A stretch of 64,000 nt of DNA from Naegleria gruberi (GCA_000004985.1 GG738850.1); one strand, 5' to 3'; shown: positions 20,951-57,012, counted from the first letter of the stretch. Program-made: numbers and translations. Notes: generated from the sequence alone by a model not told the origin.

Positions 20951-22258
20951 ATGGCTAGTCATGATGAGGAAGTTTACATTGCTGAATTTTATAGTGGTAT
21001 CGGAGGAACAAGAATGTCTCTTGAAATGATTCAAGCCTTTTTTGAGGCACAAGTAAATGGAAAGAAAATTAAATTTAATTGGATTGAAGCTTTTGATATT
21101 AATGAAAATGCAAATACTCTTTATAATAATTTATTTAATCACAAACCATGTGCAAAGGATATTGTGCATATTCCTATTGGTGATTTTCAAAATCATTATT
21201 TTAAATTATTTAAAAATTCATCATTGGAGCAAGCAAAGAAGAAATTAAAAACTGAACAAACAAGAAAATTAATGTGGACCATGTCTCCTCCTTGTCAACC
21301 ATTTACTTTGAACGGAAATAGAAAAGATAGTGAAGATGATAGGTCTAAGAGTTTTCTCTTCTTGATGGCAGATTTATTTCCTCAAGTTCTACCAGATTAC
21401 ATTTTTGTGGAAAATGTAAAGAATTTTGAAATATCTAAAACAAGACAACATTTAGTGAATCAATTGGAAAATTTTGGATACAAGTATGAAGAATACTTGA
21501 TTTGTCCAACACAATTAGGACTTCCAAATCAGAGAGTTAGATACTATTTAATTGGAAAGAGAGTAGCTAATATTACACCTCCATTAGAAAAAACAGAAGA
21601 GCTTAGAGAAATACCATTACATCTGATAACAGATCCACCAAAAACTATTTTAAGAGATCAGGAGCCTTTACGACCAAAAATTGATTTTGAGAGCTCATAT
21701 GGAAAAGAGAAAATTCTACAATTAGGAGCAAAGTTAATCGACTTGTATGATTTAAATTCTATTTTACTCACACCTGGGGAAGAGAAAAAATACCAAACTG
21801 ATATGATTTATTTGAACGAGAAAAATATAACAAAAATCAAAGGTTACAGATACGACCTAATTTTCAAAGATCCATATGGAAAGAAGAATTTAACACCAAT
21901 CAAATCTGAGTGTAGTTGTATCACAAAATCATATGGTCAAGTTCAATTCCTTAGAGGAACAGGACCTATAGTATTGATTCTTGATGAAAATCAAATGTTA
22001 GATATTGATTCTAATGAAACCATTTATAAGAAAATTGATTTTGAAAATCCAGTAGAAACCATGATGCCACTTGGAAAGCTTCGATTTTTACATCCAATTG
22101 AGGTATCACGACTAATGACATTTGTTCCTTGGATAATGAACAACACAGGCAAACTTACCGTTAAGCAACTTTACAAGTTGATGGGAAATTCTGTTAATCC
22201 AATTACTCTTGCAAACATAATTTATTTACTATTTTCAAGTGATTCATTTTTGGCTTAA
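20951..22258 (+). CDS. TRDMT1: DNA (cytosine-5)-methyltransferase-like tRNA methyltransferase, Dnmt2/TRDMT1
   Basis: This is a 435-aa ORF with these motifs: motif I EFYSGIGG, motif IV PPCQPFT, motif VI ENVKNF, motif VIII QRVRYY, and a Dnmt2-specific target-recognition CxTKSY...GTG (SECSCITKSYGQVQFLRGTG). Motif X is GNSVN. Lysine-rich insertions make it longer than a typical Dnmt2. Confidence 0.85.
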   Translation: MASHDEEVYIAEFYSGIGGTRMSLEMIQAFFEAQVNGKKIKFNWIEAFDINENANTLYNNLFNHKPCAKDIVHIPIGDFQNHYFKLFKNSSLEQAKKKLKTEQTRKLMWTMSPPCQPFTLNGNRKDSEDDRSKSFLFLMADLFPQVLPDYIFVENVKNFEISKTRQHLVNQLENFGYKYEEYLICPTQLGLPNQRVRYYLIGKRVANITPPLEKTEELREIPLHLITDPPKTILRDQEPLRPKIDFESSYGKEKILQLGAKLIDLYDLNSILLTPGEEKKYQTDMIYLNEKNITKIKGYRYDLIFKDPYGKKNLTPIKSECSCITKSYGQVQFLRGTGPIVLILDENQMLDIDSNETIYKKIDFENPVETMMPLGKLRFLHPIEVSRLMTFVPWIMNNTGKLTVKQLYKLMGNSVNPITLANIIYLLFSSDSFLA

Positions 22259-24232
22259 TTTGTCTACAATCCTCTTAAGGTTATTTTTTGCGCTTGTGTA
22301 GCAATTGTCAATCTTGATTGCAGTTTCGAAATCAAATCTAGCTGCCTCCAGGTCTTCCATACATGTTTCGTATATACGACCCCTCATATTGAAAAGCACA
22401 GCGTTGGAAGGATCATTTGCTATTGCTTGATTAATGATGCTTAATCCTGTTTTGTGGTCTTTTAATTTGTAGCAATACAAGTTAGCACGATTTAAAAATA
22501 CATGGACTGATTTCGAATCATACTTATCAGTGATTAAACTATAATCCTTAAGTGCTTGTTGATAGTTTTGCATATCCTCGTAACATAATGCTCTTATGAA
22601 ATGAGTAAGTGCTTTAAACGGTCTACAACTGTCATCCATATCATGTATTATTGAATCTAGGTCACTGAGGCAATTTTCATAATCCTTTTTGATTATTCTA
22701 TTGTACAGAACTCTTATCAACATAGATTCATCTTCAGTAGTAGTGTTAATATTTGCTTCTACCATATTTTCAATGAGTTTTTCGGTTATAGAGTGTGATT
22801 GCAGTTCCAAAACATCTATAATGGTCAAATATATTTTGAAGGAATCGTTAAGACTTCTAGAATTCCTTATTTCCTTTGATTTAGAGACAAGAATGTCCAA
22901 TATGTGAGTGTGAGATTTCTGAGCTGGTTTTTCTTTCTTGACATCTTTGAAAATTTTCTCTATTCTTTGTAAATTATCCTTCGCTTCCAGATTCTTTGGA
23001 TCAAGCTTTAATGCAAGAATGTAATCAAGCCTAGCTGATTCAAAATTTTTAAACCCAACTTCGAAAACCTTTCCTCTTCCAACCAAACAAGGTACTGAGC
23101 TGGCTTGTATTTTCAATGCTCGATTGTAATCTGCTAAAGCCATATCAAATTCACTAATCTTGAAGAATAATTGAGCTCTACTTAAAAATGCTGCAAAGTA
23201 ATCTGGAGATAGAATGATTGCATGATTGTAATCTCTCAATGCGCTTTCCCAGTCATCTAATGAATTCTTGTACAAATCTGCTCTGCATTTATAAAGCATT
23301 GCAATGTTAGGATGATTTTCAATACCAATATTTAAATCGTTGAGAGCTGCCTCTACTTGGTCTGATCTTTGTAATATTAATGATCTGGAAACATATGCTT
23401 TGTAATAGTCGTAATCCTCAATTATTTTTCCGAAATCCATTTTGGCTTCAGAATATCTTTTAAGATCAACGTAGCAACATCCCCTTATATAGTGTGTTAA
23501 ACATACAAGTAAATTGTGTTCACTTGTTTGGATTTCCAACAAATTAGTGCAGAAAGAAATGGTCTTGTGATTGTCCATTAAAATAGATCTGGAAAATATA
23601 GCACAACAAAATAAGGCAAGGGTGTAGTTTGGACTTTCTTTAACAGAATCCAAAAAGGAATACATATTATGTTCTTTGGAGTCCAGAATTGATATTTTCC
23701 TCTTCATTTCATTGTATATTTGTTCAGCTTTTGAGCATTCTGTTTGTACAATTATTTCATTTGATAAAAAGAGCAAATAATCCACAGTCATTATTTCATC
23801 AGATGATGAGCTTGGTTTGGAATCATCATTTCTATCAACTCTTTTGGGAGTGTACTGTCTTGACCTTGCTGTTTCCTTAACTTCATCAGCAGCATCCTTC
23901 TTGATTTTTTCAATCAGTGCATCCTTCTTCTTTTCAACCATCTTCTTAGCTTCATTGATGATATTCTCGATTAGATTTTTAACAAGCCTTTCCTGTTCCT
24001 CAAAAATCTGTTTTACATTTGTATCCTTACTAAGTTCTGCTTGCTTTTCCAATTCCTCGATCATTTCATCAATATTATATTTAGGTTGCTCCTCTTCCAT
24101 CAAAACTTCTGGTTGATCACTTGCTCTCAACTCCTCTAGCTTTTTCGTATATTCCTGTTCGGTAAGAAATCCCTCCCTTAGTAGTGTGTTGAGAAGTATT
24201 TCCGAACTGGGACCTTCAGTATTGTTGTTCAT
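22244..24232 (-). CDS. Tetratricopeptide (TPR) repeat protein, about 662 aa
   Basis: It carries multiple TPR-like 34-aa units, for example ...MLYKCRADLYKNSLDDWESALRDYNHAIILSPDYFAAFLSRAQLFFKISEFDMALADYNRALKI.... The track start at 24253 is TTG and the first ATG is at 24232. Its 3' end overlaps the Dnmt2 CDS by 15 bp. Confidence 0.65.
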   Translation of the reverse strand: MNNNTEGPSSEILLNTLLREGFLTEQEYTKKLEELRASDQPEVLMEEEQPKYNIDEMIEELEKQAELSKDTNVKQIFEEQERLVKNLIENIINEAKKMVEKKKDALIEKIKKDAADEVKETARSRQYTPKRVDRNDDSKPSSSSDEIMTVDYLLFLSNEIIVQTECSKAEQIYNEMKRKISILDSKEHNMYSFLDSVKESPNYTLALFCCAIFSRSILMDNHKTISFCTNLLEIQTSEHNLLVCLTHYIRGCCYVDLKRYSEAKMDFGKIIEDYDYYKAYVSRSLILQRSDQVEAALNDLNIGIENHPNIAMLYKCRADLYKNSLDDWESALRDYNHAIILSPDYFAAFLSRAQLFFKISEFDMALADYNRALKIQASSVPCLVGRGKVFEVGFKNFESARLDYILALKLDPKNLEAKDNLQRIEKIFKDVKKEKPAQKSHTHILDILVSKSKEIRNSRSLNDSFKIYLTIIDVLELQSHSITEKLIENMVEANINTTTEDESMLIRVLYNRIIKKDYENCLSDLDSIIHDMDDSCRPFKALTHFIRALCYEDMQNYQQALKDYSLITDKYDSKSVHVFLNRANLYCYKLKDHKTGLSIINQAIANDPSNAVLFNMRGRIYETCMEDLEAARFDFETAIKIDNCYTSAKNNLKRIVDKLSQK

Positions 24233-24420
24233 TTTTTTAAAATCTTTTTTCAAATTAAACGGCTAGTTATCAATAAGGGTTATGGAAAGTTTATTCATTG
24301 ATAAGGAACAAATATCGAATTGTGTTTACACCTTTAATTCTTGCTAAATATCACTCTCAGATGAACAAAATGATGTTTGCCGCCAAAACCCATACAATTT
24401 TTGCGCCAACTTTAAAAAAA

Positions 24421-25380
24421 ATGTCAACAGGGGATATTAAAAACAACGTTGAAAAATTAAGAACGCAATTAAGAAGTATTCATTATAATGGGAGTTTTGA
24501 TGTTGAGGGAATAATAAACGGAAAACCAGAAGTGTTTCTGCCGTTATTGAATTATACACTGCTGCAGTTTAGCAAATCTTTAGCCAAATTCTTTATACAA
24601 AAGGGATATTTATTCCATAATCTTTCCGATTCAAAGTTTATTGAAACTGTTTACCGATTATTAATTAACGAGTTTGCATACAATCCAAGTTTGAGCATTA
24701 TTTACTTCTTATCTAGCGGATTTTCAGAGAGAAAGGTCTTGTTCCTTTGTGATGTAATTCATTACTGTAAAAAAAAGCATAATGAATTGGTAAAGACTAA
24801 AAAGAAGAGCCTCTTTGAAAGAGGAAAGGAAAAGGAAAAAGATCATCCAAAGAAGACTGAGGAATCAAAATCTCAACAGCCAGAAGTACAAAAGAATATT
24901 CCTGATATTGTTAGAGAACCAAAGCATGTTGTTTTGGTCAGAAAAGAACCTGAATATCAACTAGATGTCGATGACTCGAACGTCGATACTACAGTATCTT
25001 CTGCTCTCAATGAGAGTGACATATTTATACGTGCTTTGAATGATCTTTCGCATAGAATGATGGATAGTATTCAAAAGCTTGACGATAAGGTTGACAAGAA
25101 TTTATCCAGTCTTAGAGACAGAGTATTTTTAGTGGAGAGAAGAGTTCAAGCTCTGGAAGAAAGTGCAAAACAGAAAGCTCAAAAGGAAGAAGCACTACAA
25201 CTAAATCCAACATCTCGAATTTCTCGATCGCCTGAAAGGATACCAAACACAAACCACATACCTCAACAATTTTTTACACCTGCAGTGAATCATGGCAGTC
25301 CGCCAATGCCAAAAAGGCAAATCAGCGACACTGAAGATTTTATCAACCAACTAGCTCAAAAACATAAAATAAAATTGTAA
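24421..25380 (+). CDS. CEP44: Centrosomal protein CEP44 homologue
   Basis: The N-terminal 130 aa MSTGDIKNNVEKLRTQLRSIHYNGSFDVEGIINGKPEVFLPLLNYTLLQFSKSLAKFFIQKGYLFHNLSDSKFIETVYRLLINEFAYNPSLSIIYFLSSGFSERKVLFLCDVIHYCKKKHNEL are colinear with the CEP44 N-terminal domain. The track ORF starts earlier at 24298, but homology begins at the ATG at 24421. Confidence 0.7.
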   Translation: MSTGDIKNNVEKLRTQLRSIHYNGSFDVEGIINGKPEVFLPLLNYTLLQFSKSLAKFFIQKGYLFHNLSDSKFIETVYRLLINEFAYNPSLSIIYFLSSGFSERKVLFLCDVIHYCKKKHNELVKTKKKSLFERGKEKEKDHPKKTEESKSQQPEVQKNIPDIVREPKHVVLVRKEPEYQLDVDDSNVDTTVSSALNESDIFIRALNDLSHRMMDSIQKLDDKVDKNLSSLRDRVFLVERRVQALEESAKQKAQKEEALQLNPTSRISRSPERIPNTNHIPQQFFTPAVNHGSPPMPKRQISDTEDFINQLAQKHKIKL

Positions 25381-25381
25381 T

Positions 25382-27956
25382 TTATTGTAAAAACTTTTCA
25401 AGTTGAGATTCTTGTGATTTTTCAGCATCTTCTGCTCTTAACACCTCAATTGAACCCTTACTATCACCAACCAACACAATTGGAACATCTTCAGCGAATA
25501 TTGTGCAATTCAGCTTTCCAGGTTTTGTCTTGGAATATTTTGGTCTAACTGTTGAATAGCTCAAATCCCAAAGCTCCAAATCTCCAACAATGGATGAAGT
25601 AGCAAACATTGTCGAGCAATACTTACTCCAAGCAACATCTGTCACAGAGTAAGAACGTTGATCACTCTTCTCAGAGTATGACTCGATAGTAAATATTGGT
25701 GTTAATGATTCTTGATTCCATATCTTCACTGTCCAGTCAGCACTACAAGAAATAAACATGTCAGGAACGACAGGATTCCATCTCACAGAGTAAACAGGAC
25801 CTGTGTGATCAATGTATGTTTCAAGAGGGTGTTCATTATATGAGCTAGAGCACTTGAAGATAGCACCATCTTCTGTACCAACAAGATAAATCAAATTGTC
25901 AGAAGGTGAGAAATCAATACTCATACCACCCGATTCTCTTGAAATCATGGCATCTCCTCCCATATCTGTTGCTCTTCCTATTCTCTTCAATCTCATTATT
26001 TCTGATGATTCCAAACCTTTCTTAATTGTCCATGAATTTACTCTACCATCTACACCAACCGAGTGCAATTTCTCGCCAACATCCTTTCCTCGATTTACCC
26101 ATTTTAGATCCCAAACTGTACCTGTATGACTCTTAATAGTTTCCATTACTGGCGTATTTTCCTTTCTTCTGATATCGTAAATTGATACAGTACCATCACT
26201 TAAACCAGCTGCCAAAATACTAGGATTAGTGGCAGAGAAATTTACACTGTTAACACCAGCTCCATCTACCTTAAGAATACGTTCTGGGTAGGCTGGATTC
26301 TTAACATTCCAACAGAGAATGACACCATTAGATTGATGTAAATCAGTAACATCTCCAGATCCATAAGCTGCTGCCAGTATGTCATTATTCTGCTTATTCC
26401 ATGTGAGGTTGTTGACATTGTAGTTTTTAACCACATCACAATTATATTCCCAAAGAGTTGTGAGAACTCCTGATGGTTTAGTGTTGACAACATCTTCTTC
26501 AGTATCACTTTCAGCCTTATCTTTTTCTTCATCCTCCCTTTCCTTTTCTTTTTCGTCCTCTCCTTTAGCAACTTCTTCCTCTTCGAAAGTGTCACTTCTT
26601 GGAGTTTCTTGAGAGTCGTTTGGCGATTTTGAGGCAACCTCCTCTTGAACTTCTTTAGTTTCAGATTGTTCTTCAGGAAGTGGTAATAAAGGCACATCTC
26701 TATCATCTGCATTAATGTATCGTTTTTGTCTGTTATGGAATATATTTTGTACAACTGCTCTTGTTATTACAAGTTCTTGGTAGGATGAAACAGATGTCTT
26801 TTCGCTGCCAACTCTTCCACTCTTAACACTGATATCATCAGCTCCATCATCCTCCAAATCTCCTTCTTCCTCGTCTTCCTCATCTTGCTTGTTTGATAGT
26901 GAGGTCATTATTTCCCTTTCTTCCCTTTCTCGTTCTTCTCTTTCTCGAATATCTTTATAATCATCAAATATTTGATAAGCTGAAACTTGAACTTCAACTT
27001 CTTCGTATTCTGTCTTCGAAGTGTTTGTTCTCTTGTTTTTGTAAAACTTTTCCATTGTTTGTACATGTTTATCCATATAATTATCTCTATTATTTTCCTT
27101 ATTTTTCAGCAATTCCTTATAGACCTTGTTTTTTTCTCTAATTTCTTCAATCTTAGGATCGTCAACCTTTACACTCTCATCAAATTTATCAAACAGGAAA
27201 AATGTTTCAGTTTCTGTTAAGGATATAGTAAAATCCACTTCTTGTAACATTTCCAATTGTTTTTCAGTTAATTTTTCCTCGTTGGAACGATCCAAACTTA
27301 TTGAAGGAACGTCACTCTTTTTAATAAAACTATCCACTGCTCCAATATTATCCAAATCTTGAGCTAAACTCAAATCTACAGATCCAGCAGTGCTGAAAGT
27401 GTCATCATTACCCACAGGACCACTGAACACAAATGACTCCTCATCGTCACTCACAACAGATGGACTTGATGAGCCAGCTTGACTAGCCTCTCCTTGAGGA
27501 ATATCTCTTCCGAAACTGTATGAAGAAGCTCTATCAAAATCAGAAATTGATTCACTCTAAAACAATATTAAATACAATTCCATCTTATTAAAAACCTACT
27601 GCTGATGAAGGAGAAATATTTCCCGATTGATATGATCCTGCCATATCTGCTGATGTATTTTGAGAGAATAATGGTGCAGGATTTTTGATTTGTTTTGTTA
27701 CTGGGTCAACAGCATCAAATGAATCCTTAGTTTTTCCTAGCATTGTTTGAAATCTCTTCTTCATTCCTTGAAGAGTAATTGATGATCCAACATTCTTTTT
27801 TCCAAATCCTTTTTTCGAATCGGATTTTCTTGATTTTGATGTTCTCGATGTTGACGACCCTGTATTGAGTTGAGTGGACATTCTACGAGATTCCCTGTTT
27901 GTAGAACTGCCTGCTCTAGAGGACGTTGGTGGATCTTGGAATGGGTTTCTATTCAT
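25382..27956 (-). CDS. DNAI1: Axonemal outer-arm dynein intermediate chain (DNAI1/IC78-like), WD40
   Basis: Gene model is join(complement(25382..27556),complement(27600..27956)). The 43-nt intron has a GTAGGT donor and TTTTAG acceptor, in phase 0. The track ORF's GTG 'start' is internal, and the frame is open upstream exactly to the acceptor. WD-repeat blocks match DNAI1: LCWNVKNPAYPE, IYLVGTEDGAIFKCSSSYNEHPLETYIDHTGPVYSVRWNP and MFISCSADWTVKIWN. The DNAI1 equivalents are MFLVGTEEGKIYKCSKSY and FMSCSSDWTVKIWD. Acidic and charged low-complexity inserts lie in the N-terminal half. Confidence 0.7.
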
Positions 27957-28023
27957 TTTTTTTTGTAGATAAAATTGGCGGTAAATTTTGAACCAACAAT
28001 AATGACAAAATTGTGTTTTTAAT

Positions 28024-29319
28024 TTAGAAAGCAGCAAGACCAGTAATGCTTCTACCTAAAATCAAAGCATGGATATCATGAGTTCCTTCGTAAGTATTTA
28101 CAGATTCAAGATTGGCAGAATGTCTAATAATATGATATTCATCAGCAATACCATTACCACCCAACATATCTCTACAAACTCTGGCAATTTCAAGAGCTTT
28201 ACCAGCATTATTTCTCTTCAACATTGAAATCATTTCAGGAGCCCATTCACCCTTATCCTTAAGTCTACCCAATTGAACACATGAAACAAGTCCTAAAGAA
28301 ATTTCAGTAAGCATGTCAGCCATCTTCTTTTGTGGCAATTGATTTTGAGCAAGTGGTCTACCAAATTGCTTTCTATCAATTTGATATTGACGAGCAGTGT
28401 GGAAACAGTATTCAGCTGCACCCAAAGCTCCCCAAGCAATACCATATCTAGCACTATTTAAACAAGAGAATGGACCACCAAGACCAGAAGCATGAGGCAA
28501 CAAATTTTCAACTGGAACATGGACATCATCCATACCAATTGAACCTGTAATTGAAGCTCTGAGAGACATCTTTCCTTCAATCTTTGGTGCAGTGAGACCC
28601 TTCATTCCCTTTTCAAGAATGAAACCTTTAATTTTACCTTCGTGTGCTTCACTTCTAGCCCAAACAACGAAAATATCAGCAATTGGTGAGTTAGTAATCC
28701 ACATCTTTGAACCATTCAAAATATAATATTTTCCACATTGTGATAACTTGGCTTTTGTTTCCATACTACTTGGATCCGATCCGTGATTTGGTTCAGTTAA
28801 TCCAAAACAACCAATTAATTCACCAGTAGCAAGTTTTGGCAAATACTTTTGCTTTTGTGCTTCATTACCCCATTGGTTAATAGGATGCATAACAAGGGAG
28901 CTTTGAACAGACATTGCAGAACGATAACCACTATCAACTCTTTCAACTTCACGAGCAACAAGTCCATAAGCAACATTTGAAGCACCAGCACAACCATGTC
29001 CATGAATATTGATACCTAACATACCCATTTCACCCATTTCTCTCATAATTTCAGGGTCAAAATGTTCCTTTCTATTGGCTTCCAAAACTCTTGGCATGAG
29101 TTTTGCTTGACAGTAACCATGGACTTGATCACGAATTTCCTTTTCTTCTTCGGTGAGCAAACTTTCAACATTAAGTGGGTCTTTCCAGTTGAAGCTAACC
29201 ATAACTTCCTTGTGTTGGGTTGCGTTTGTTGAAAAACATCTGGAGTTATTGCTGATGAGTGATGCAAGACCGGACTTGTTGGAATTTTTGGTGATGACTT
29301 TTCTAGCTGATGAAAGCAT
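28024..29319 (-). CDS. GCDH: Glutaryl-CoA dehydrogenase, mitochondrial (acyl-CoA dehydrogenase family)
   Basis: It is near-colinear with GCDH throughout. Matching blocks are [81 protein letters not shown] and [19 protein letters not shown]. The presequence-like start [13 protein letters not shown] is at ATG 29319. An upstream in-frame ATG at 29403 is a less likely alternative. Confidence 0.9.
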
Positions 29320-35953: not shown

Positions 35954-35955
35954 AA

Positions 35956-38312: not shown

Positions 38313-38330
38313 TAATTTATTGAAAAACAA

Positions 38331-41609: not shown

Positions 41610-41755
41610 TTTTTTAAACTTCAGAATTGCACCAAAGTTTTTTCAAAAGGAACCTAGTAGGAGGAGGAATTGAGAAAATAAAGAGATAATGAAGTGTCAA
41701 TGCCAATCAAGAGTTGGATTTATGTGAAGAGATAATTGAGTATTTCAATAAAAAA

Positions 41756-42154: not shown

Positions 42155-42251
42155 ATCAATGAATGAAATATATATTTGTTTCTTTGAATTAACTATTGAA
42201 AACTAATTAATTTTGTGTTTTTGTGTTTTTTTATTTAAAAAAAATAGCACA

Positions 42252-44753: not shown

Positions 44754-44777
44754 TCATAAAATGTATAATATTGCAAA

Positions 44778-47249: not shown

Positions 47250-47271
47250 TTTTTAATTTTGGAGGGAAATT

Positions 47272-48387: not shown

Positions 48388-48391
48388 AAAA

Positions 48392-49130
48392 ATGCCAACA
48401 AACGCTTATTTCACAATTGTTGCTAAAGATTGTCCGATTTATGAATTGGAAATTTCAACATCAAAGGTTGGTTATCTAATGATGATTGAATTTTATTATA
48501 ATCATTATGTTTTTTTAATTTATGTTCATTCCGATCATGTGATGATGATATTTTAAAATATTAATAATAATAATAATGATGAATATTTGGAATTAATTGT
48601 GATGATTTGATGATGAAAATATATTTTTGATGAATAATAATAATATGATTAATCCGCGAATATATATTTGTTTAATTGTTTATTAATTAATAATAATAAT
48701 AATAGAAAACCGATCAATCACAACTTAAACAATTTGTTTTACATGCTTCTCTTGATGCAGTTGAAGAATTACAATGGACAACTAATGCTTTATTCTTGAA
48801 ATCTGTTGATAGATTTAATGAATTTAACATTTATGGATTTGTTACTGGTGGAAGTAAGTATGAACATTAATAGAATTAATTTTTAAATATTATAATAATG
48901 ATAACAATTTAATTATTTATTCAATATTTCCTAAAATAGATATCAGATTTTTATTACTTTTTGAAAATGATAAAAAGAATGATGATCAAACAATTAAGAG
49001 TTTCTTTAGTGATGTTTTTGAATTGTATATTAAAATCCAAATGAATCCATTCTATGAATTGTATACTCCAATTACTTCACATGATTTTGATACAAGAGTT
49101 AAACAATTAGCAAATAAGTATATTTCGTAA
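48392..49130 (+). CDS. TRAPPC2: TRAPP complex subunit 2 (sedlin)
   Basis: Gene model is join(48392..48466,48706..48853,48940..49130). Intron 1 is 239 nt with a weak GTTGGT donor, (TAA)n-rich, in phase 0. Intron 2 is 86 nt, GTAAGT, in phase 1. The spliced 137-aa product MPTNAYFTIVAKDCPIYELEISTSK|KTDQSQLKQFVLHASLDAVEELQWTTNALFLKSVDRFNEFNIYGFVTGG|NIRFLLLFENDKKNDDQTIKSFFSDVFELYIKIQMNPFYELYTPITSHDFDTRVKQLANKYIS is colinear with sedlin. Sedlin has YFVIVGHHDNPVFEMEF..., [36 protein letters not shown] and FFTDVYDLYIKFSMNPFY. Confidence 0.75.
48540..48700 (+). repeat. AT-rich microsatellites inside TRAPPC2 intron 1: (TAA)n/(ATA)n runs and repeated 'gtgatgat' units
   Basis: Runs such as taataataataataatgatg, aataataataatatga and aattaataataataataatag are read directly. 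This is the only long intron in the window. Confidence 0.55.
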
Positions 49131-49227
49131 ATAAAGACAAATTAGAGTTGTGTTATTGAATTGGTTATTGATTGAATTATGAAAGGTTCTTTTTTAGACA
49201 TTTTCAGTCAGTAATCATTAAAAAAAA

Positions 49228-50490
49228 ATGTCAACATTTAAAAAGTACTCATCAGAAGATATTGCAACACTAACAATTGCTCGTAATATTGGTTCTTGCA
49301 AAGGATGGCATGTTACTAGCGAATTTTTATGTTTTGGAACTATGGAAAGTGAAGGATGTGTTTATGTGTAAGTTTTTCACACTCAATTGACTAGAAAGTG
49401 GTAATAAACAGATATCGAGTTGATAAATTAGATAATTTACAAGAAGCAGTTCACAGTATGGTAAAAAGTCCATTCAATAAGACCTTTCCAGTAACTGTTT
49501 TTTATTTACCAAAATTAGATTTAATATTTGTTGGATATGATAATGGATGCATTGTAATATTTGATGGAAAATCAAGAGAGAAAAAGTCAATTATTAGAGG
49601 TTGTCATCATATTAAAAAGATTCAAGTAATTTACAATAACAAATTGGATAAACATTTACTTGTTGCTGCTTGTAATCAAGGTGAAAAGAGTCATTTACTT
49701 TTTTGGAAGATTACAAAGAATTCAAATCATAATGTTGATTATTCTTCAACTGATTTGAAACAATTTGAGTTTAATTCACAAATTTCAGATTTATATACTA
49801 CTGATATCTTTATTGAATCAATTAATAAGGAAAATAGAGTTTTAATTTGTCCATTAATGGATGATTCATTTAAATTACTTTACAATTTATTTGAACATGA
49901 AATTGTTGAATTACATTTCAATAAGGATCATTTAAATATGAATGGTGGTATTAGTAGTATGTCATTCGATCAAGATAAGGAAGGAATCAATGATTTAGCA
50001 TTAAGTGGAATGTTAAATGGTAAATTCCAAGTTTACAATTTATCAAATGGTACTTTACAAAAAACAATTAAGGCTGAAAAACATAATAGTATTGAATGTA
50101 TTGCATTTGATGGTGCATTAATGAATGTTTGTATTGGTGGAAGTGAAGGAAATGTTTCAATTTACAATATTGAAAATCAAGAACCAATTCTTGTGAAATG
50201 CATTGAAAATTGTCATGATGGATTTATTACAGCAATTGCACAATGTGAAAATTTCTTTACAACAGGTTCACAAGATGGTACCATTAAAGTTCTAGATAAG
50301 GTAAGTTAAATACTCATTGTAAAGTGTTTCAAACAATACAAAGACAAATGGAACATTAATTGTAAACTTGGATCAAAAACATACAAGTTGCATCACTCAT
50401 TTGGAATTTATTGAAGAACATTTATTAATTTCATCAAGTGAAGATGGTACCATTAGAATGCACATTTTAAATATTGCCAAATTAGAATAA
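49228..50490 (+). CDS. WD40-repeat protein of about 391 aa
   Basis: Gene model is join(49228..49367,49412..50300,50344..50490). A 44-nt intron (GTAAGT, phase 2) joins an upstream ATG exon to track ORF 49398..50309. A 43-nt intron (GTAAGT...CAATACAAAG, phase 0) restores the C-terminal blade ...TNGTLIVNLDQKHTSCITHLEFIEEHLLISSSEDGTIRMHILNIAKLE. WD signatures are LIFVGYDNGCIVIFD and FFTTGSQDGTIKVLD. Confidence 0.6.
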
Positions 50491-50495
50491 AAAAA

Positions 50496-51413
50496 ATGTC
50501 ACCAAAGCTTTTCAAAGATTTTGACACTTGTCACGTGTTTAGGTTTTTAAATTTTAAAGAATTATGTAAAATATCACTTGTTTGTAAGAAATGGTTTATT
50601 ACAAGTCGATCGGATTTATTGTGGAAACAACTTTATAGATTTTATCAAATTGATGTTTTTTGTAATCAACCACAAGAATTAAATCAAGTTAAATGTTCAA
50701 TCATTTCGGATTTTACTCTCATGAATATAATGTTGAGATTGGAAAATTTATCAATAGCGGCACATTCAACATCATGTTGTGCTGAAATTTCAGTACCAAT
50801 TTATTATATTGCCATGTTGAAACCTAAAAAACAATTTAAATTGATTTTTGCTTCGGAATATTCATTTTCACGTACATTTGTCAAGTATGTGAATGTGAGT
50901 TTGGATTCAAAATCAATATTTATGCAATATAATCATGACAAATTTCATAATAATTTATTCGAGTTGATTTGTGAACATTATGTGAAGAAAATTATGAAGA
51001 GAATGAAACCTGAAGTTTTTACAGATTTGATAAGGAGTGAAGATATTTCGGATAATAACATTTTGATTAGTAAGAATGAATTTGTGTTTGCCATTTCAAT
51101 TCCATCAATTTATTCGATTTGTTATTGTTTATTTAATGTTCAGACAAGACAATGCTATCATGTTATTACAAGTAATATGTATCCCTATCAATATGCTATT
51201 CGATTTGTACTATTATTACAAGCTCAGTGTAGAGATTCACTTTCAGAATTTGATTTTAATAAGAATTTAACGAAGACAGTAGAGCATTTATTTTCAATTT
51301 TTGAGTTGAACAGGAATAGTGAAGGTCAATTTAAGATTGGGGTTGATAATAATGAACTTTATGAACCAATAACATTTGAAGATATGCATGTAATTGATAT
51401 TAGTGAAATTTAA
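50496..51413 (+). CDS. F-box protein, 305 aa
   Basis: The N-terminal F-box is FDTCHVFRFLNFKELCKISLVCKKWFITSRSDLLWKQLY. The ATG is at 50496. Its stop TAA at 51411-51413 overlaps the stop of the convergent gene, giving a TTAA palindrome. Confidence 0.6.
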   Translation: MSPKLFKDFDTCHVFRFLNFKELCKISLVCKKWFITSRSDLLWKQLYRFYQIDVFCNQPQELNQVKCSIISDFTLMNIMLRLENLSIAAHSTSCCAEISVPIYYIAMLKPKKQFKLIFASEYSFSRTFVKYVNVSLDSKSIFMQYNHDKFHNNLFELICEHYVKKIMKRMKPEVFTDLIRSEDISDNNILISKNEFVFAISIPSIYSICYCLFNVQTRQCYHVITSNMYPYQYAIRFVLLLQAQCRDSLSEFDFNKNLTKTVEHLFSIFELNRNSEGQFKIGVDNNELYEPITFEDMHVIDISEI

Positions 51414-52789
51414 TTTTTACTTCTCTTCAAAATCAAGCATTCATTTGTAATTGATTCAATAATTAAATTTTGAGCCATATTTTGATAAGTTAATTCAATA
51501 TGTACACCACCGTGTTGTTCTACAAATCTCCAAGTTCCGACCATCGTTTCTCCATGGTTTGACATACTGACGTGACCGTGGGAAGAGTATAAAATACATT
51601 CACTAAGAGAGCTAGAGCCCAAGTTTGAATCTCCCAAATGTCTATAAACAGTAGTACCTGTTTGCTCATTACTTTCAGACTTGGACAAAATCCATTGTTT
51701 TTCACATAAAAGCAAAGTATAAGCTTCCTTATTGAAATTTGAATTTCCCTTCAAAATAGCATTAAGGGCTGGTTCTTCGTCAATTGGCTTTGTATGACCT
51801 CCCAAAACATGTCCACCAGTTGTTCTACCACCAGTTACTGGTAAAGTTGGTTCCTCATCTCCACTATCACTTCCATCGTCTACAGGCATTGTGGTTGTTG
51901 GCATTGTTGTATCTGATTTGATAACTACGCCTTTGTTTTTAGTCAATTGTAGAATTACAGAACCTTTTGGAACTAATCCAGCTTGATCAAGAGTTGTGTT
52001 TTGCCAATCTTCCTCGAAATATTCTTTACGAGGGAATGGAGTCAAGATACTATATGCTTCATTAGAATCCAAATGTGAAGAAACAGCTTTGAACAAATCA
52101 GCAAGAGTTCCAGGAGTATTGAGTTGAATCTTTTCAGTACTACCTCTTGGTAATCTAACTTGAATGAGTGCTGATGTTGCAGAACTTTCAGAAGGCTTTG
52201 GAGTTACTGTTGAAGAAGAAGAAGCTGTTGAACTACTAGCAGAAGATGAAGATCCACTCAATCTTGCTTGTTTTTCTTCCTTTTCCTTTTTCATTGCATC
52301 TTTCAAAGCCTTTACTCTCTTCTTTTCTTCCAATTTTTCCTTTCTGATTCTTTCTTGTTCTTTCAATCTTTCTCTTTCTGCAAAAGCTAATTTAGCTTCA
52401 ACAGAATCTCCTTTCAATTTGTTTGGATTTGTATAAATAACAGGAATACTACCACCAGAGTTTAAAATTGATGATGGTTGATTATTTACAGGTTCAGAAG
52501 ATGTTGTTACTACTGGAGTCGGATTGGTTGTTACAGGAGTGCTTGTTGTTGTTGTTGAAGAAGTATCCATAATTTCCTCTTGATCCAATTCAGCAAAGTG
52601 ATCATAAATATATTGAATTGCTTGATCAATAGAAACATTATTAACCATTTGAAGCGCTCTATTAGATTTGTATCTAGAAAAGCCCATATCTACTAGAGTT
52701 GCCGACATTACAGGATTGGCGATCACATAATCATTGTTGTTGGATCCAGTGTTTGGACGTCCTCCGAGTTTGAGTGTTGGTTGAGACAT
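51410..52789 (-). CDS. UBA- and UBX-domain protein (p97/Cdc48 adaptor-like), 459 aa
   Basis: The N-terminal UBA-like segment is VMSATLVDMGFSRYKSNRALQMVNNVSIDQAIQYIYDHF. A charged coiled-coil stretch sits in the middle. The UBX-like ubiquitin fold is ALIQVRLPRGSTEKIQLNTPGTLADLFKAVSSHL...FPRKEYFEEDWQNTTLDQAGLVPKGSVILQL. A C-terminal domain is not identified. Confidence 0.65.
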   Translation of the reverse strand: MSQPTLKLGGRPNTGSNNNDYVIANPVMSATLVDMGFSRYKSNRALQMVNNVSIDQAIQYIYDHFAELDQEEIMDTSSTTTTSTPVTTNPTPVVTTSSEPVNNQPSSILNSGGSIPVIYTNPNKLKGDSVEAKLAFAERERLKEQERIRKEKLEEKKRVKALKDAMKKEKEEKQARLSGSSSSASSSTASSSSTVTPKPSESSATSALIQVRLPRGSTEKIQLNTPGTLADLFKAVSSHLDSNEAYSILTPFPRKEYFEEDWQNTTLDQAGLVPKGSVILQLTKNKGVVIKSDTTMPTTTMPVDDGSDSGDEEPTLPVTGGRTTGGHVLGGHTKPIDEEPALNAILKGNSNFNKEAYTLLLCEKQWILSKSESNEQTGTTVYRHLGDSNLGSSSLSECILYSSHGHVSMSNHGETMVGTWRFVEQHGGVHIELTYQNMAQNLIIESITNECLILKRSKN

Positions 52790-52896
52790 TTTTTATTCTT
52801 TTTTTAAAGAATGAACTTGTGCTATTTTTAATTTCCTTCTTCCAACAGCTGATAATATTTTTGTAAAGTATTGAATATTTTAATATTCTTAATTTA

Positions 52897-54918
52897 TTAA
52901 GGTAATTCTTTCAATAGTGATTGAATAAGTGTTTTAAAATATGATATTGATCTATCCATTTGAGTATCAATGGAGAGAGGTGTTTCATTTCGGAGTAAGT
53001 TGAGAGTGTTCAGAGAAACAAGTTCTCTATGAATGGAAGTGTAAAGTTTGCAATAGGATACATCCTTTGTTAGATGAGCCAATTTGTAACACAATTGTTG
53101 GCTCTTGTGTAAACAAAATGATTTCAGATAGTGTGATAAGGATACTTTCAAATCATCCACTCTATTGTGTTTTAATCCACGTAATTCATGATAATAGGCA
53201 ATATCAGTTTTAGATCCATGAGTGAGAATATGTGAAGAATTAGTCAGATAATCAACATCCTTGTATAAATATAATAATAATCTGTTTTTGTGAGTTTCAA
53301 AATGATTCTTTTCACAGAAATCAATAGCTTTCAATAAATAAGGAAGAATTAGGGCAGTGGTTTCTTCATTCTTTAACAGCTCACAATTTGTTAAATATAC
53401 AGTTACTAGCTGGATAAAATTGAATTCTGTTGATGATTGAAAACAGAGTTTCATCTTTGTGACAGACTCGTGTATGTTATTGTCAAGATGATAGGCTATT
53501 AAAGATTCCAAATATAATAAATCACATGTATCTATTACCAGTGTATTATCCATGATATTTTTGTATTGATTCATTAGTAAATTTACATTTTCTCTATCTC
53601 TCAACTCAATAAAGTGAGTAATAAGCAATCGGTAACATGAACTATCTGATGTTGGAATAGACCTCGAAGATAGTAATTCATAGTCGCTATATAAATCGAG
53701 ACTGGACTTGGTATAACCAATAGAAGATGTTTGATTCTTGATTGAAAGTCTATTGTGACAACTATACAACATCTTATCTCCAATAAGTCTGTAGAAATGA
53801 GCTTTGACATTGGTTAATAATGATTTTGGAAATATTTCAGTTAACAACAAAGGTTTAGATTGATCATAAAGATCCAATGAGTTTTGTTGTTGTAATTGTT
53901 CACATTTACGAATTAAAGAATATATTTGTTGGCAGGCTATTTGATTGTTGAAACCTGTCAGTAACTTGAATTGAATAAAATCCAAAGTAATATAGAATAA
54001 AATAGAAGTGTTATGACTTTGAGCAAACTTGAGTGCCTGAAGAATGAATAATTCAACATTCGAAGATTGATTATGGAAATATTCAATCATTTTGATTTTG
54101 TACAATATTATAAAAGAAAGCAATAGGCAATCATGCTCATTGTTTTGTTGAGATATTTTGATACTTTCCTTTAAAGAGATAGTAGCTTGTTTGTAATATT
54201 TAAAATGATAGTACAGAAGTGCCTTATTCAGTGCCGAATATGATCTATTTTGGAAATAATCATAATAGATATGTACATAGAAATTAGCATTAATAAAATC
54301 CAATTCTCTACAGCTCTGTATATAATTATTATAATAAAGTTTCGGAAATATTTTACTAACACCAATAGGGCTAGTTTTTTTCATACTTCTATTAGAATTA
54401 CTCTCAATAGAATCATTATTTAGCAGCAAAACTTGGGAGTGATTAGATTTAAATCTATTAATACTATCATATAAAGTTTTAACTCCATCAAAAAGTAAAT
54501 TATTAAATAATAAAATAATTTTCCTGAGAAATATTCCATAAATTGAAGTTTTGTTTGCATCAATAGATTTCAATGTATCAAATAATGTTAATAATGCATC
54601 AACACTGTCAATGGTATTGTAAAGTGCGAAAAATCTTGGTATTACTTCGGAATTAATATTTGTTAATTCCGCAATAAATTTATGTATATTTCCATATATT
54701 GGTGTTACTTTATGTTGTATACAATCAATAATAAACTTGTTTACTCCTTCCAAATTTAAATTCTTACATGATACATCCTGAGTAATACTAATTAAAATTG
54801 CTGTACAAATATCATGAGGTGTAATCTTATTGATGGAATATTCTAATAATACTGATGATGGAAGTGAAGGATTGTTTGATGGTATTATTGCTTGTTGATG
54901 CGTTGCAATACCACTCAT
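52897..54918 (-). CDS. ANAPC5: Anaphase-promoting complex subunit 5
   Basis: It is 673 aa. Colinear APC5 blocks are DICTAILISITQDVSC (APC5 YKIAVLVLLNEMSRTG), GIFLRKIILLFNNLLFDGVKTLYDSINRF (GLFLRHMILAYSKLSFSQVFKLYTALQQYF) and ISLKESIKISQQNNEHDCLLLSFIILYKIK (LALQEAIRIAQESNDHVCLQHCLSWLYVLG). The C-terminal half is helical and TPR-like. Confidence 0.65.
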   Translation of the reverse strand: MSGIATHQQAIIPSNNPSLPSSVLLEYSINKITPHDICTAILISITQDVSCKNLNLEGVNKFIIDCIQHKVTPIYGNIHKFIAELTNINSEVIPRFFALYNTIDSVDALLTLFDTLKSIDANKTSIYGIFLRKIILLFNNLLFDGVKTLYDSINRFKSNHSQVLLLNNDSIESNSNRSMKKTSPIGVSKIFPKLYYNNYIQSCRELDFINANFYVHIYYDYFQNRSYSALNKALLYYHFKYYKQATISLKESIKISQQNNEHDCLLLSFIILYKIKMIEYFHNQSSNVELFILQALKFAQSHNTSILFYITLDFIQFKLLTGFNNQIACQQIYSLIRKCEQLQQQNSLDLYDQSKPLLLTEIFPKSLLTNVKAHFYRLIGDKMLYSCHNRLSIKNQTSSIGYTKSSLDLYSDYELLSSRSIPTSDSSCYRLLITHFIELRDRENVNLLMNQYKNIMDNTLVIDTCDLLYLESLIAYHLDNNIHESVTKMKLCFQSSTEFNFIQLVTVYLTNCELLKNEETTALILPYLLKAIDFCEKNHFETHKNRLLLYLYKDVDYLTNSSHILTHGSKTDIAYYHELRGLKHNRVDDLKVSLSHYLKSFCLHKSQQLCYKLAHLTKDVSYCKLYTSIHRELVSLNTLNLLRNETPLSIDTQMDRSISYFKTLIQSLLKELP

Positions 54919-55124
54919 TTTTTTACTATTTATTTTAAATTTTAAATTTAGGCGGGAATTATTTCTTAACGTTATGATGATAGCATAATTGTTACTTTCT
55001 TGGTGTCATTAAGTATTGATACTAACAGCCTTGCAAAGATATAAATTAAAAGGAATTAGAATTTTAATTATTATTATTTTAATCTTGGTTCAATTTTAGA
55101 AATTGAATTAAAAATTATTAAAAA

Positions 55125-56039
55125 ATGTTCAAAACTAAAGTGATTGGAAATCAATGTTCAACATTTTATAAAATCGGAAGTCAACAACAATGCATTAATA
55201 ACAATAGTATTAATAGGAAATTTACAACAAGCTTTAAAACTTTGGACCATTCTTATAATTTGACCAAACTCTTCCCAATTTATAATCCTAATAATTTTAA
55301 TAATACAACAAAAAGCACCACAACACCTGCTACTAGTAATAGTACAAATACACCAATTCAACAAACGATAGGAAGTGGCTCTGGAGAAAAAATTGTATTT
55401 AATCAATTTCAAAAACAAAAGAATAGTACACCTAAAAAGTTGAATAAGAGTTTATCAAAATTCAATTCATTGAGTATTATTACAAAACATACAGTCACAT
55501 TTAATGAAGTTAAAGATGGAAAGGATGATTCTAAACTTGTACCTCAAATAAGTGCAGGTACACCTATTTTACGTATTAACCATGATCCAATATCAGATGT
55601 TATTGATCTGAACAAATTGGGAAGTAGTATGAATACTATCAAGGCATCAAACAAAATTCAACATTATAGACTTCATGCAATAATTTATAATTGGCATAAT
55701 GTTATCGAATGCTTAAATTTTGAATCTAAATTACAAAATACTTTCACTTTGAAACAATTAATGAACAAACTTGCGAACGTTCTTTCCAATCCAAACAGTG
55801 ATTTTTATCTTGGAAAAGAATCAAAAGAGACCAATACTATTTTAAATGAAGGTAAAACTCTGCATTTTGCATTCCTGTCTAGAGAGATTATTGAATGTAT
55901 TTCTTCAATCAACAATCCTTTGTATAGAGAAATGATTTCAAATTTTTCGACTGATTCTGATATTATCAAGTCCACAAACTATGATATTGTCTACAAGTTA
56001 GATGATGAATTGTTGAAGAAACATGACATAAAAATCTAA
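55125..56039 (+). CDS. Hypothetical low-complexity protein (N/T/S-rich), 304 aa
   Basis: The ORF has an ATG at 55125 and I recognise no family. Its stop (56037-56039) directly abuts the stop of the convergent downstream gene. Confidence 0.4.
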   Translation: MFKTKVIGNQCSTFYKIGSQQQCINNNSINRKFTTSFKTLDHSYNLTKLFPIYNPNNFNNTTKSTTTPATSNSTNTPIQQTIGSGSGEKIVFNQFQKQKNSTPKKLNKSLSKFNSLSIITKHTVTFNEVKDGKDDSKLVPQISAGTPILRINHDPISDVIDLNKLGSSMNTIKASNKIQHYRLHAIIYNWHNVIECLNFESKLQNTFTLKQLMNKLANVLSNPNSDFYLGKESKETNTILNEGKTLHFAFLSREIIECISSINNPLYREMISNFSTDSDIIKSTNYDIVYKLDDELLKKHDIKI

Positions 56040-57012
56040 TTATTTTTCCACTAACTTCATCCATTCATGCAATTCCTTTTTTGTTGACATGTACAGTTCT
56101 GACAATCTTTTGATTTCGTCCTGTTGTGCTTTTCTTTCTTCCTCTCTTTCCATCATCAATTTAGTAATGAATTGATTTTTTGTGTGTAATAGTTTTTTAA
56201 GCTCTTCATAGCTGCAAATTGTAAGCAAAAATCATTCCAATAACTTACTTGTACTTGTAAAAAGTCAAATCTTTCATATCTCCTTGATCGTATTCTAATA
56301 AGGTTGTCATGTATGAGGGGTTGTCAATTGAGAGGCATAAATTCTTCTCAGATAAAAACATTGATTCTGTTATCAAATTCGAAATGTCTGAAAATGTTGA
56401 ATACTCTGCATTAGCCGGAATATCGTCTCTTCCTTGAGTTAATTCCAATCCAACCTTATTCGAGAAAATCTGTATCTGATTCAATTGATTTAGAACACTA
56501 CTTTCGTCCTGTTTTAAAACAAGCATTTTGTTTGACTCTTGAAGATTGAGATTGTTGATGAGTGTATCCATTTGAACTTTATACTCATTGCACAGCTTGT
56601 CTTTTGCCTTTCTAACCAGAGTCATTTTACTCTGTATTTTGTATAACTGTGACAGAAGAGATTGTTTGGTTGGAATTAATTTAGAGTTGATTAGGAATTG
56701 AAGTTCTGTAAGTTGTTTTTCATAAACATGATTATTAATATTTCTTGAGGCAATAAAGTTTAGCTTATGTAAATCATAATTTTGAGAGGTGGGTATTTGA
56801 TTTTCTTGAGTGGTCTCAACCTTCTTTGGTTCCTCAATTTTAGGCTCTTCCTCACTTGTTGATTTTCTTGATTTTTTAGATGAAGATGATCTCTTTTCCT
56901 TCTTTTCCTTTTTATCTTTCTTTTTCTTCTTGTCTTCCGATTCATCTGAAGATTTTGATGATTTGGACTTTTTGGAGGATGAGGAGGAACGAGACTTTTT
57001 CTCTGAAGGCAT
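56040..57012 (-). CDS. Hypothetical protein with S/K-rich basic N-terminus and C-terminal coiled coil
   Basis: The probable model is join(complement(56040..56211),complement(56249..57012)). A 37-nt intron (GTAAGT donor overlapping the apparent stop ...YKYK*, acceptor TTTGCAG, phase 2) links track ORFs 56245..57012 and 56040..56228. The unspliced alternative gives 255 aa ending at 56245. Confidence 0.45.

Follow-up and report, generated by a model that had tools for sequence, protein, structure and literature searches.

The window analysed here is a 64-kb stretch of Naegleria gruberi nuclear DNA, ~85% of which lies within the extents of coding sequences (CDSs). tRNA and Rfam scans of the window returned a 5S rRNA gene as their sole match. 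At ten convergent junctions, genes on opposite strands meet tail to tail, the geometry of cis-natural antisense pairs, with CDS-CDS gaps of -15, -4, 0, 1, 1, 2, 24, 29, 53, and 375 bp (Table 1). A plus-strand open reading frame (ORF) at 40268..40567 was considered as an eleventh junction and discarded because its coding score was under the cut-off and it had no homologue.

Table 1. Genes and features at the close convergent junctions (positions counted from the first base of the window)
Feature	Position	Strand	Details
Rad21-like gene	7111..8838	+	Pfam Rad21_Rec8_N; stop TAG 8836..8838
RNF121-like RING gene, two exons	8868..9964	-	Intron 9000..9043; stop TAA 8868..8870
helical15161, large protein without Pfam domain	15161..17020	+	Stop TAA 17018..17020, within AATAAA 17016..17021 (dual-use stop/poly(A) signal)
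cc17022, small coiled-coil gene (weak TSC22-like)	17022..17309	-	Coding score 20.9; stop 17022..17024
Dnmt2/TRDMT1 gene	20951..22258	+	Best PDB matches human DNMT2 entries 1g55, 9hgm
Dnmt2 (+)/TPR (-) CDS-CDS overlap	22244..22258		15 bp; affects only non-conserved C-terminal tails of both proteins
AATAAA for TPR gene	22221..22226	-	Inside Dnmt2 CDS
TPR-repeat gene	22244..24253	-	ORF, Pfam; stop TGA 22244..22246
CEP44 gene	24298..25380	+	Pfam; first ATG 24361; stop 25378..25380
Axonemal dynein intermediate chain, DNAI4/WDR78-like	25382..28037	-	Stop 25382..25384 within AATAAA (25386..25381)
RCC1-like gene a (RCC1a)	33656..35953	+	Pfam; stop 35951..35953 within AATAAA (35949..35954)
RCC1-like gene b (RCC1b)	35956..37500	-	Pfam; stop TAG 35956..35958
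TLC (TRAM/LAG1/CLN8) gene	43737..44753	+	Pfam; stop 44751..44753, 24 nt from ANAPC2 stop
ANAPC2 gene	44778..47249	-	Pfam; stop TGA 44778..44780
F-box gene	50496..51413	+	Pfam; stop 51411..51413
UBA-UBX gene (UBX)	51410..52789	-	Pfam; stop 51410..51412 within ATTAAA (51414..51409)
unk55125, without Pfam domain	55125..56039	+	Stop 56037..56039
cc56040, coiled-coil gene, two exons	56040..57012	-	Intron 56212..56248; stop 56040..56042
Phosphodiesterase-family (PDE) gene, multi-exon	59920..62445	+	Likely last exon ends 62445, 53 nt from next stop
unk62499, without Pfam domain	62499..63530	-	Stop 62499..62501 within AATAAA (62503..62498)

The initial annotation had described a series of tail-to-tail pairs with no real 3' intergenic space, and ORF tables together with direct read-out of the sequence reproduced its gene ends: a 15-bp CDS overlap (Dnmt2/TPR), a 4-bp overlap in which TTAA (51410..51413) is common to both stops (F-box/UBX), directly adjoining stops in TAATTA at 56037..56042 (unk55125/cc56040), and gaps of 1 bp (CEP44/DNAI4; helical15161/cc17022), 2 bp (the two RCC1-like genes), and 29 bp (Rad21/RNF121). 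Two further close pairs were added, TLC/ANAPC2 (24 bp) and PDE/unk62499 (53 bp), the terminal exon of the PDE gene being placed by coding score alone. The CDSs of Dnmt2/TPR and F-box/UBX thus overlap, both stops included in the latter, and the remaining convergent pairs have no CDS bases in common. The last five codons of Dnmt2, stop region included, lie within the TPR CDS, and its conserved core stops at residue 428 of 435. The family names given earlier agreed with Pfam, apart from a gene called DNAI1, which among named proteins is closest to dynein axonemal intermediate chain 4 (DNAI4) and whose protein is a 100% match to NAEGRDRAFT_63304. An inverted duplication was rejected as the source of the RCC1a/RCC1b junction: the repeats are merely 21-28% identical between the proteins, and no inverted DNA repeat is centred there.

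Convergent neighbours in the window had a median gap of 1.5 bp; the tandem median was 100 bp and the divergent median 191 bp (convergent versus tandem/divergent, Mann-Whitney p = 1.4e-4). Nine of the ten convergent gaps were shorter than 78 nt (two median untranslated regions [UTRs]) and eight were shorter than 44 nt. The other spacer classes were also very short, as in compacted genomes: the divergent minimum was 22 bp, and two tandem junctions measured 4-5 nt (TAAAAAAATG).

Direct RNA sequencing of N. gruberi (PMC11529991) gives a median 3' UTR of 39 nt (22 nt where AAUAAA overlaps the stop), cleavage 15-20 nt downstream of AAUAAA, and AAUAAA overlapping 11-13% of stops, which are termed "dual-use" stop codons. 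Of the 31 TAA stops in the window, 6 were overlapped by AATAAA against a background of 5% (p = 0.004), and 9 by AWTAAA (AATAAA or ATTAAA; p = 0.001). Among 37 gene ends, eight had a stop-overlapping AATAAA, either in the -2 register (six ends: helical15161, DNAI4, PCCA, RCC1a, WD40, and unk62499) or in registers +1 and +2 (ANAPC5 and Sedlin), and three more had ATTAAA in the -2 register (GTPase, DUF501, and UBX). AAUAAA overlapping the stop is what that source calls dual use, and the hexamers found here are predicted to be used, in which case cleavage would fall ~15-25 nt downstream and leave a 3' UTR of ~22 nt.

Seven of 14 tight ends (helical15161, CEP44, DNAI4, RCC1a, UBX, DUF501, and WD40) had a canonical AATAAA or ATTAAA that overlapped or closely preceded the stop codon, versus 3 of 23 roomier ends (Fisher p = 0.02). 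The partner CDS is therefore not required to hold the signals, and the claim that poly(A) signals must lie there is not supported. At CEP44, AATAAA (25368..25373) is 10 nt upstream of the stop. Elsewhere the nearest signal does fall in the partner CDS: AATAAA 20 nt beyond the TPR stop (hexamer start counted from the first stop base), ATTAAA at 35926..35921 for RCC1b (in RCC1a), and ATTAAA at 51462..51467 for F-box (in UBX). No canonical hexamer was found within 150 nt of the Dnmt2, cc17022, unk55125, cc56040, TLC, and ANAPC2 ends.

AATAAA density in the window was 0.11/kb in sense CDS versus 1.89/kb in antisense. Only 3 AAT-AAA codon pairs were present where 31 would be expected (p = 1.6e-10), and the TTT-ATT pair was not avoided. 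AATAAA has been purged from sense coding DNA in a strand-specific manner, and the antisense strand has been spared. There was no enrichment of AATAAA in the terminal 150 nt of the partner (~1.85/kb, versus the antisense background of 1.89/kb).

Gaps of -15 to +2 bp leave no spacer for a 3' UTR, as the initial annotation had recognised, and therefore any non-zero 3' UTR covers partner coding sequence. It had offered antisense overlap or very short UTRs as alternatives; both together are indicated, and pervasive antisense transcription through genes is not, since the medians of 39 and 22 nt given in PMC11529991 imply that the overlap would be short. Only a predicted 3' UTR of 10-40 nt would lie in the partner CDS. 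The inferred cleavage sites would give RNA overlaps that we estimate at ~30-100 nt (CEP44/DNAI4, ~30 nt; RCC1a/RCC1b, ~70 nt; F-box/UBX, ~100 nt).

Gaps were also tallied in ~175 kb from N. lovaniensis, N. fowleri, and Willaertia magna. As in N. gruberi, median gaps rose from convergent (51 bp; corrected, 46.5 bp) through tandem (180 bp) to divergent neighbours (255 bp), with p = 1e-3. Convergent gaps in the relatives nonetheless exceeded those in N. gruberi (corrected median of 46.5 versus 1.5 bp), and gaps of ≤2 bp were found at 1 of 16 junctions there versus 6 of 10 here (Fisher p = 0.005). CEP44/DNAI4 was convergent and tight in three species (1, 6, and 17 bp), the gap was 0, 0, and 175 bp for unk55125/cc56040, with the 0-bp TAATTA junction identical in N. 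lovaniensis, and -4, 58, 53, and 29 bp for F-box/UBX. N. lovaniensis has kept the dual-use stops at both DNAI4 and UBX, and Willaertia has kept the one at DNAI4. Separately, the N. lovaniensis annotation contained three visible gene-truncation errors of the kind made when overlaps are barred or spacers presumed.

We consider it likely that the tail-to-tail abutment is the convergent-gene side of genome compaction in N. gruberi. The abutting ends are real yet largely expected in a tightly packed genome, and the published RNA sequencing accounts for most of what is seen. Spacers between tail-to-tail genes would shrink until coding sequences collide, so that gaps accumulate at ~0 and small CDS overlaps are confined to dispensable C-terminal tails. 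Such collapse would be tolerated because very short 3' UTRs suffice for N. gruberi mRNAs, because AAUAAA is a strong signal that can overlap or closely precede the stop codon of its gene, and because the neighbour's antisense strand is unprotected against poly(A) signals. Each transcript would be cleaved ~10-40 nt past its stop, within the last few codons of the partner, which would produce short 3'-3' RNA overlaps. Compaction does not fully account for the exact zero spacing in N. gruberi, the relatives being wider.

It is unlikely that the 3' overlaps are selected and not merely tolerated, with sense-antisense RNA or polymerase collision regulating the partners (nat-siRNAs, transcriptional interference). 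CEP44 and DNAI4, which stay together as described above, are both centriole/cilium genes; N. gruberi and N. lovaniensis have the same TAATTA junction though the flanking proteins are only ~38-82% identical; Naegleria codes for candidate Dicer and Argonaute homologues (PMC13315211); and in yeast, convergent genes interfere with one another through their overlapping 3' UTRs (PMC3900390). However, orthologous gaps drift freely (F-box/UBX; unk55125/cc56040), two of the tightest junctions (Dnmt2/TPR and RCC1a/RCC1b) are adjacencies specific to N. gruberi with unrelated partners, and zero-length spacers without safe breakpoints predict pair conservation equally. Also unlikely is that the zero-gap junctions are a maintained architecture and not passive compaction, their adjoining stop/poly(A) modules imposing 30-100 nt of double-stranded overlap on the partner mRNAs; this overlap would feed an RNAi or interference circuit, or would physically lock pairs of the CEP44/DNAI4 type together for co-regulation in amoeba-to-flagellate differentiation. 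A related, equally unlikely reading is that the 4-5-nt tandem junctions reflect bicistronic expression.

Very unlikely is an absence of transcript overlap, with cleavage at or a few nucleotides past the stop, near-zero 3' UTRs, and mRNAs ending before the partner CDS. The CEP44 hexamer would give a UTR of ~5-13 nt if cleavage falls at the distance reported in PMC11529991, and the AATAAA of DUF501 is 12 nt before its stop. Against this, the UTR medians measured there are longer for dual-use stops and overall alike, a 5-nt UTR already reaches the partner CDS at gaps of ≤2 bp, and two pairs have CDSs that themselves share bases.

C-terminal conservation was checked against orthologues from N. lovaniensis, N. 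fowleri, and Willaertia (one to three species per end). At 8 of 12 gene ends tested (cc56040, unk55125, UBX, TLC, ANAPC2, DNAI4, CEP44, and RCC1a), the last 70 residues reached within 0-4 residues of the orthologue end; because these C-termini align to orthologue ends, extra 3' exons, which the initial annotation had named as a way of moving the stops apart, are excluded there. The C-termini of helical15161, cc17022, RCC1b, and Dnmt2 lack an orthologue alignment, and two pairs need introns to arrive at their stops. Both introns are bounded by canonical GTAAGT..AG, and the last exon of each gene is conserved: the RNF121 intron is 44 nt (GTAAGT..TATAG), with a last exon coding for a conserved NPW...TM tail that resembles human RNF121, and the cc56040 intron is 37 nt (GTAAGT..TTGCAG), with a last exon 76-82% identical to those of N. 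fowleri and N. lovaniensis. Since any additional 3' exon must moreover fall within or past the 1-2.5-kb CDS of the partner, and an independent environmental contig of 99% identity has the same 2-bp RCC1 junction and gene calls, it is extremely improbable that abutment is an artefact of raw-ORF reading with the true stops elsewhere, via unrecognised 3' introns or exons.

Literature searches found no earlier description of convergent abutment in Naegleria. Among the closest parallels to the compaction favoured here is the set of protist dual-use stops (Giardia, Spironucleus, and N. gruberi; PMC11529991), which are alike in having AAUAAA over the stop and, in N. gruberi, UTRs of ~20-40 nt; the available text does not treat gene orientation, convergent abutment, or UTRs over neighbouring CDSs. 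The Giardia signal is WGURAA, whereas here it is AAUAAA. In microsporidia and nucleomorphs (Williams et al. 2005, PMC1182411, via PMC3629993), spacers likewise shrink until transcripts start or end in neighbours, with tight linkage. The genomes concerned, of parasites or endosymbionts, are extremely reduced, and read-through in them is often long and spans several genes, whereas Naegleria is a free-living amoeba in which a canonical AAUAAA sets the predicted overlap, a short one. Microsporidian and nucleomorph genomes are roughly 0.5-3 Mb, and that of Naegleria is ~41 Mb.

In yeast, >20% of genes belong to tail-to-tail pairs sharing termination zones, one short termination region serving both strands (PMC3900390; bioRxiv 10.1101/2022.11.02.514956). 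Here, by contrast, the spacer is ~0 and therefore each UTR falls on partner coding sequence, and CDSs overlap in two pairs. Yeast pairs usually retain a non-coding spacer, and UTR overlaps UTR. Arabidopsis convergent pairs are alike in that sense and antisense transcripts are processed in a common polyadenylation region (PMC3032780), but the overlaps are long, the genome is far less compact, and the stops do not abut.

No new mechanism is involved, since ultrashort UTRs, dual-use stops, and compact-genome overlap are already published. If our reading of the transcript ends holds, most convergent pairs here would yield 3' UTRs that are the reverse complement of the neighbour's last codons. C-terminal codons would then be doubly constrained, serving the neighbour as UTR and downstream element too, and rearrangement breakpoints between such genes would be effectively forbidden, so that conserved gene pairs would be favoured. 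Annotation pipelines that bar overlaps or presume a spacer would cut genes short. Because AATAAA is almost missing from sense coding DNA, its near-absence there provides an in-sequence gauge of poly(A) signal strength.

All coordinates given by the initial annotation for the abutting convergent stops were correct against open reading frame tables and direct sequence read-out (see table). For gap measurement, gene starts were set at the first ATG and gene ends at the terminal exon backed by homology. Convergent gaps (n = 10; −15, −4, 0, 1, 1, 2, 24, 29, 53, and 375 bp; median, 1.5 bp) were as a class smaller than all other gaps in the window (Mann-Whitney p = 1.4e-4), namely tandem (n = 17; 4 to 1376 bp; median, 100 bp) and divergent gaps (n = 10; 22 to 1305 bp; median, 191 bp). 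Nine of the 10 were below 78 nt (two median N. gruberi 3′ UTRs) and eight below 44 nt; the sole wide convergent spacer houses a 5S rRNA gene (Rfam, 96 bits), alone between genes ending at 4762 and 5138. Our map of the window comprised 38 protein-coding genes and this one 5S rRNA gene, with CDS extents covering ~85% and a G+C content of 26 to 37%. The first ATGs of ANAPC2 (−) and DUF501 (+) lie 22 nt apart (47247..47274; 38 nt in the N. lovaniensis annotation), a minimum spacer because both starts are first-ATG calls.

Positions and spacing of features (gap, CDS end to CDS end; negative, overlap)
Feature	Position (strand)	Gap, N. gruberi	N. lovaniensis	N. fowleri	W. magna	Remark
Dnmt2 / TPR gene	20951..22258 (+) / 22244..24253 (−)	−15 bp				CDSs overlap by 15 bp
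CEP44 / dynein IC gene (DNAI4)	ends 25380 / 25382	1 bp	6 bp		17 bp	
RCC1a / RCC1b (RCC1-like genes)	33656..35953 (+) / 35956..37500 (−)	2 bp				
F-box / UBA-UBX (UBX)	51410..51413	−4 bp	58 bp	53 bp	29 bp	TTAA common to both stops
55125 gene (no Pfam domain) / cc56040 (two-exon coiled-coil gene)	55125..56039 (+) / 56040..57012 (−)	0 bp	0 bp (same TAATTA)	175 bp		TAATTA at 56037..56042, stops directly side by side
Large protein gene / small coiled-coil gene	15161..17020 (+) / 17022..17309 (−)	1 nt				
Rad21 / RNF121	ends 8838 / 8868	29 nt				
TLC / ANAPC2		24 bp	50 bp	27 bp		
DUF501 stop to Sedlin ATG	48385..48394	4-5 nt				same strand; TAAAAAAATG
WD40 stop to F-box ATG	50488..50498	4-5 nt				same strand; TAAAAAAAATG
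5S rRNA gene	4855..4973 (−)					
N. lovaniensis coiled-coil gene	L003 6176..6442					last exon missed in annotation
N. lovaniensis F-box orthologue	L003 11472..12238					left out of annotation
N. lovaniensis TPR gene	L001 15001..15594					truncated in annotation
N. lovaniensis RCC1a orthologue	L004 10001..12503					split in two in annotation

The ordering of spacer classes recurred in ~175 kb of annotated sequence from N. lovaniensis, N. fowleri, and Willaertia magna, with median gaps of 51 bp (convergent, n = 16), 180 bp (tandem), and 255 bp (divergent; p = 1e-3). Correction of three obvious annotation errors by open reading frame and homology inspection lowered the convergent median to 46.5 bp. 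N. gruberi was tighter, with gaps of ≤2 bp at 6/10 junctions versus 1/16 in the relatives (p = 0.005). Four errors were noted in the public annotation of N. lovaniensis at the loci compared; the first three (coiled-coil, F-box, and TPR genes) inflate apparent convergent gaps. Where N. gruberi and N. lovaniensis carry TAATTA, N. fowleri has a 175-bp spacer (L007, 5286..5466); spacers are therefore able to grow as well as shrink.

Dnmt2 was absent at the syntenic positions of N. lovaniensis and N. fowleri, where other genes adjoin the TPR gene, and a Dnmt2 adjoining the TPR gene was not found in N. lovaniensis or Willaertia. Also missing from its syntenic position in both N. lovaniensis and N. 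fowleri was the gene block that runs from RCC1b to the Rce1-like gene (35956..43700); in these two species RCC1a is followed directly by a same-strand TLC gene, and in Willaertia by an ARM-repeat gene. Two of the tightest junctions are thus lineage-specific adjacencies. An environmental contig (99% identical) carries the same 2-bp RCC1 junction. Sequence comparison ruled out an inverted duplication as the origin of the RCC1 pair.

Gaps near zero in N. gruberi, set against an average of ~50 bp in its relatives, may reflect a deletion-driven ratchet that would be halted by selection on coding sequences. The conserved core of Dnmt2 stops at residue 428 of 435 (alignment to human DNMT2) and the C-terminal 20 residues of the TPR protein lack conservation, so that the 15-bp overlap is confined to dispensable tails; confinement of the two small overlaps to nonconserved tails fits such a ratchet. 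Convergent overlaps could possibly form a selected antisense or interference architecture. The conservation of gene pairs, a precedent in yeast (PMC3900390), and the existence of candidate Dicer and Argonaute homologues in Naegleria (PMC13315211) speak for it; the drift of gap sizes between species and the equal tightness of lineage-specific pairs speak against it.

Published direct RNA sequencing of N. gruberi (PMC11529991) found a median 3′ UTR of 39 nt, a dominant poly(A) signal AAUAAA ~15 to 20 nt upstream of cleavage, UGUA upstream and U-rich elements downstream, and overlap with AAUAAA (dual use) at 11 to 13% of stop codons, with a median UTR of 22 nt for these. In the window, 6/31 TAA stops lie inside AATAAA (register −2) versus a 5% background for any TAA (p = 0.004), and 9/31 inside AATAAA or ATTAAA (p = 0.001). 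At 7/14 ends with ≤5 nt of downstream space, a canonical hexamer overlaps or precedes the stop of the gene itself, versus 3/23 roomier ends (p = 0.02). N. lovaniensis retains the dual-use stop of both DNAI4 and UBX, and Willaertia retains that of DNAI4. The initial annotation placed both UTRs and poly(A) signals of necessity inside the partner's CDS; this stands for the short segment between stop codon and cleavage site, which must lie there together with any downstream element, and is not supported for the signal, which is often outside it given the 7/14 tight ends. From hexamer positions and published spacings, we estimate RNA overlaps of ~30 nt (CEP44/DNAI4), ~70 nt (RCC1 pair), and ~100 nt (F-box/UBX). 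Near-zero UTRs, with transcripts that do not overlap, conflict with the UTR lengths reported in PMC11529991. Neither AATAAA nor ATTAAA was present within 150 nt of six tight ends (Dnmt2, 17022, 55125, 56040, TLC, and ANAPC2), and our count saw no enrichment of partner-strand hexamers in the last 150 nt of partners over the antisense background.

Across all CDSs of the window (e.g., 74..63530), AATAAA occurs six times in the sense strand (53.4 kb; 0.11/kb) and 101 times antisense (1.89/kb). The Asn-Lys codon pair AAT-AAA was observed 3 times versus 31 expected (p = 1.6e-10), with AAC-AAA in its place, and TTT-ATT showed no avoidance. The sense-strand rarity and the AAT-AAA shortage clearly mark avoidance of the poly(A) signal. 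Genes are therefore protected against premature polyadenylation of their own transcripts and offer no resistance to termination of a neighbor's antisense-running RNA. The strand asymmetry supports the proposed model, in which each transcript would be cleaved a short way past its stop, inside the partner's CDS.

Unseen 3′ exons, named in the initial annotation as what would move the stops apart, were addressed by searching the C-terminal 70 residues at twelve gene ends (tblastn) against the syntenic loci of N. lovaniensis, N. fowleri, and W. magna. Eight of the twelve (cc56040, 55125 gene, UBX, TLC, ANAPC2, DNAI4, CEP44, and RCC1a) aligned to within 0 to 4 residues of the orthologue's end, and this conservation of C termini excludes a gene-model artefact for these eight. 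Any extra 3′ exon would have to sit inside or past the partner's 1- to 2.5-kb CDS. The RNF121 and cc56040 models require introns to reach their stops, and both hold. The RNF121 intron (9000..9043, GTAAGT...TATAG) precedes a last exon encoding KNPWNSDSEFYLSVLDLTRYFVVFNPMILILIQ..., in agreement with the NPW/transmembrane tail that is conserved after the RING in RNF121, the human protein included; the last exon of cc56040, after its intron (56212..56248, GTAAGT...TTGCAG), is 82% identical in N. lovaniensis and 76% in N. fowleri. Both introns are very short for spliceosomal introns (44 and 37 nt) and start with GTAAGT.

The abutting convergent stops are real, statistically clear, and conserved, and a specialist would largely expect them. 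No prior description in Naegleria was found in the literature searched. They are a further case of known compaction because its elements have all been described before: ultrashort UTRs and dual-use stops in N. gruberi itself (PMC11529991), transcript overlap in eukaryotic genomes that have undergone compaction (Williams et al. 2005, as cited in PMC3629993), and bidirectional termination regions common to convergent genes in yeast (PMC3900390) and Arabidopsis (PMC3032780).

Pfam backed the family labels of the genes with the exception of "DNAI1," and PDB matches identified Dnmt2 as a genuine DNMT2/TRDMT1. The open reading frame at 25382..27454 (−) is 100% identical to N. gruberi NAEGRDRAFT_63304, and the next-best matches come from N. 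fowleri, N. lovaniensis, and W. magna; sources name this gene dynein axonemal intermediate chain 4 (WDR78-like), and the label was changed to DNAI4, the name borne by its closest named relatives. The annotated product of DNAI4 (25382..28037, −) has 818 aa versus 690 aa for the open reading frame, so upstream exons beyond it are required.

In both tandem pairs spaced by 4 to 5 nt, the stop of the first gene is overlapped by ATTAAA or AATAAA. The second gene must have its transcription start within the CDS of the first or else be expressed from a bicistronic RNA. N. lovaniensis lacks this arrangement: there Sedlin is preceded, 66 bp away, by a radial-spoke gene, and the spacer between WD40 and F-box genes seems larger than in N. 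gruberi, by an approximate reading. Two anaphase-promoting-complex subunits, ANAPC2 (44778..47249) and ANAPC5 (52897..54918), lie ~5.6 kb apart in the window, and their orthologues share a common N. lovaniensis contig.
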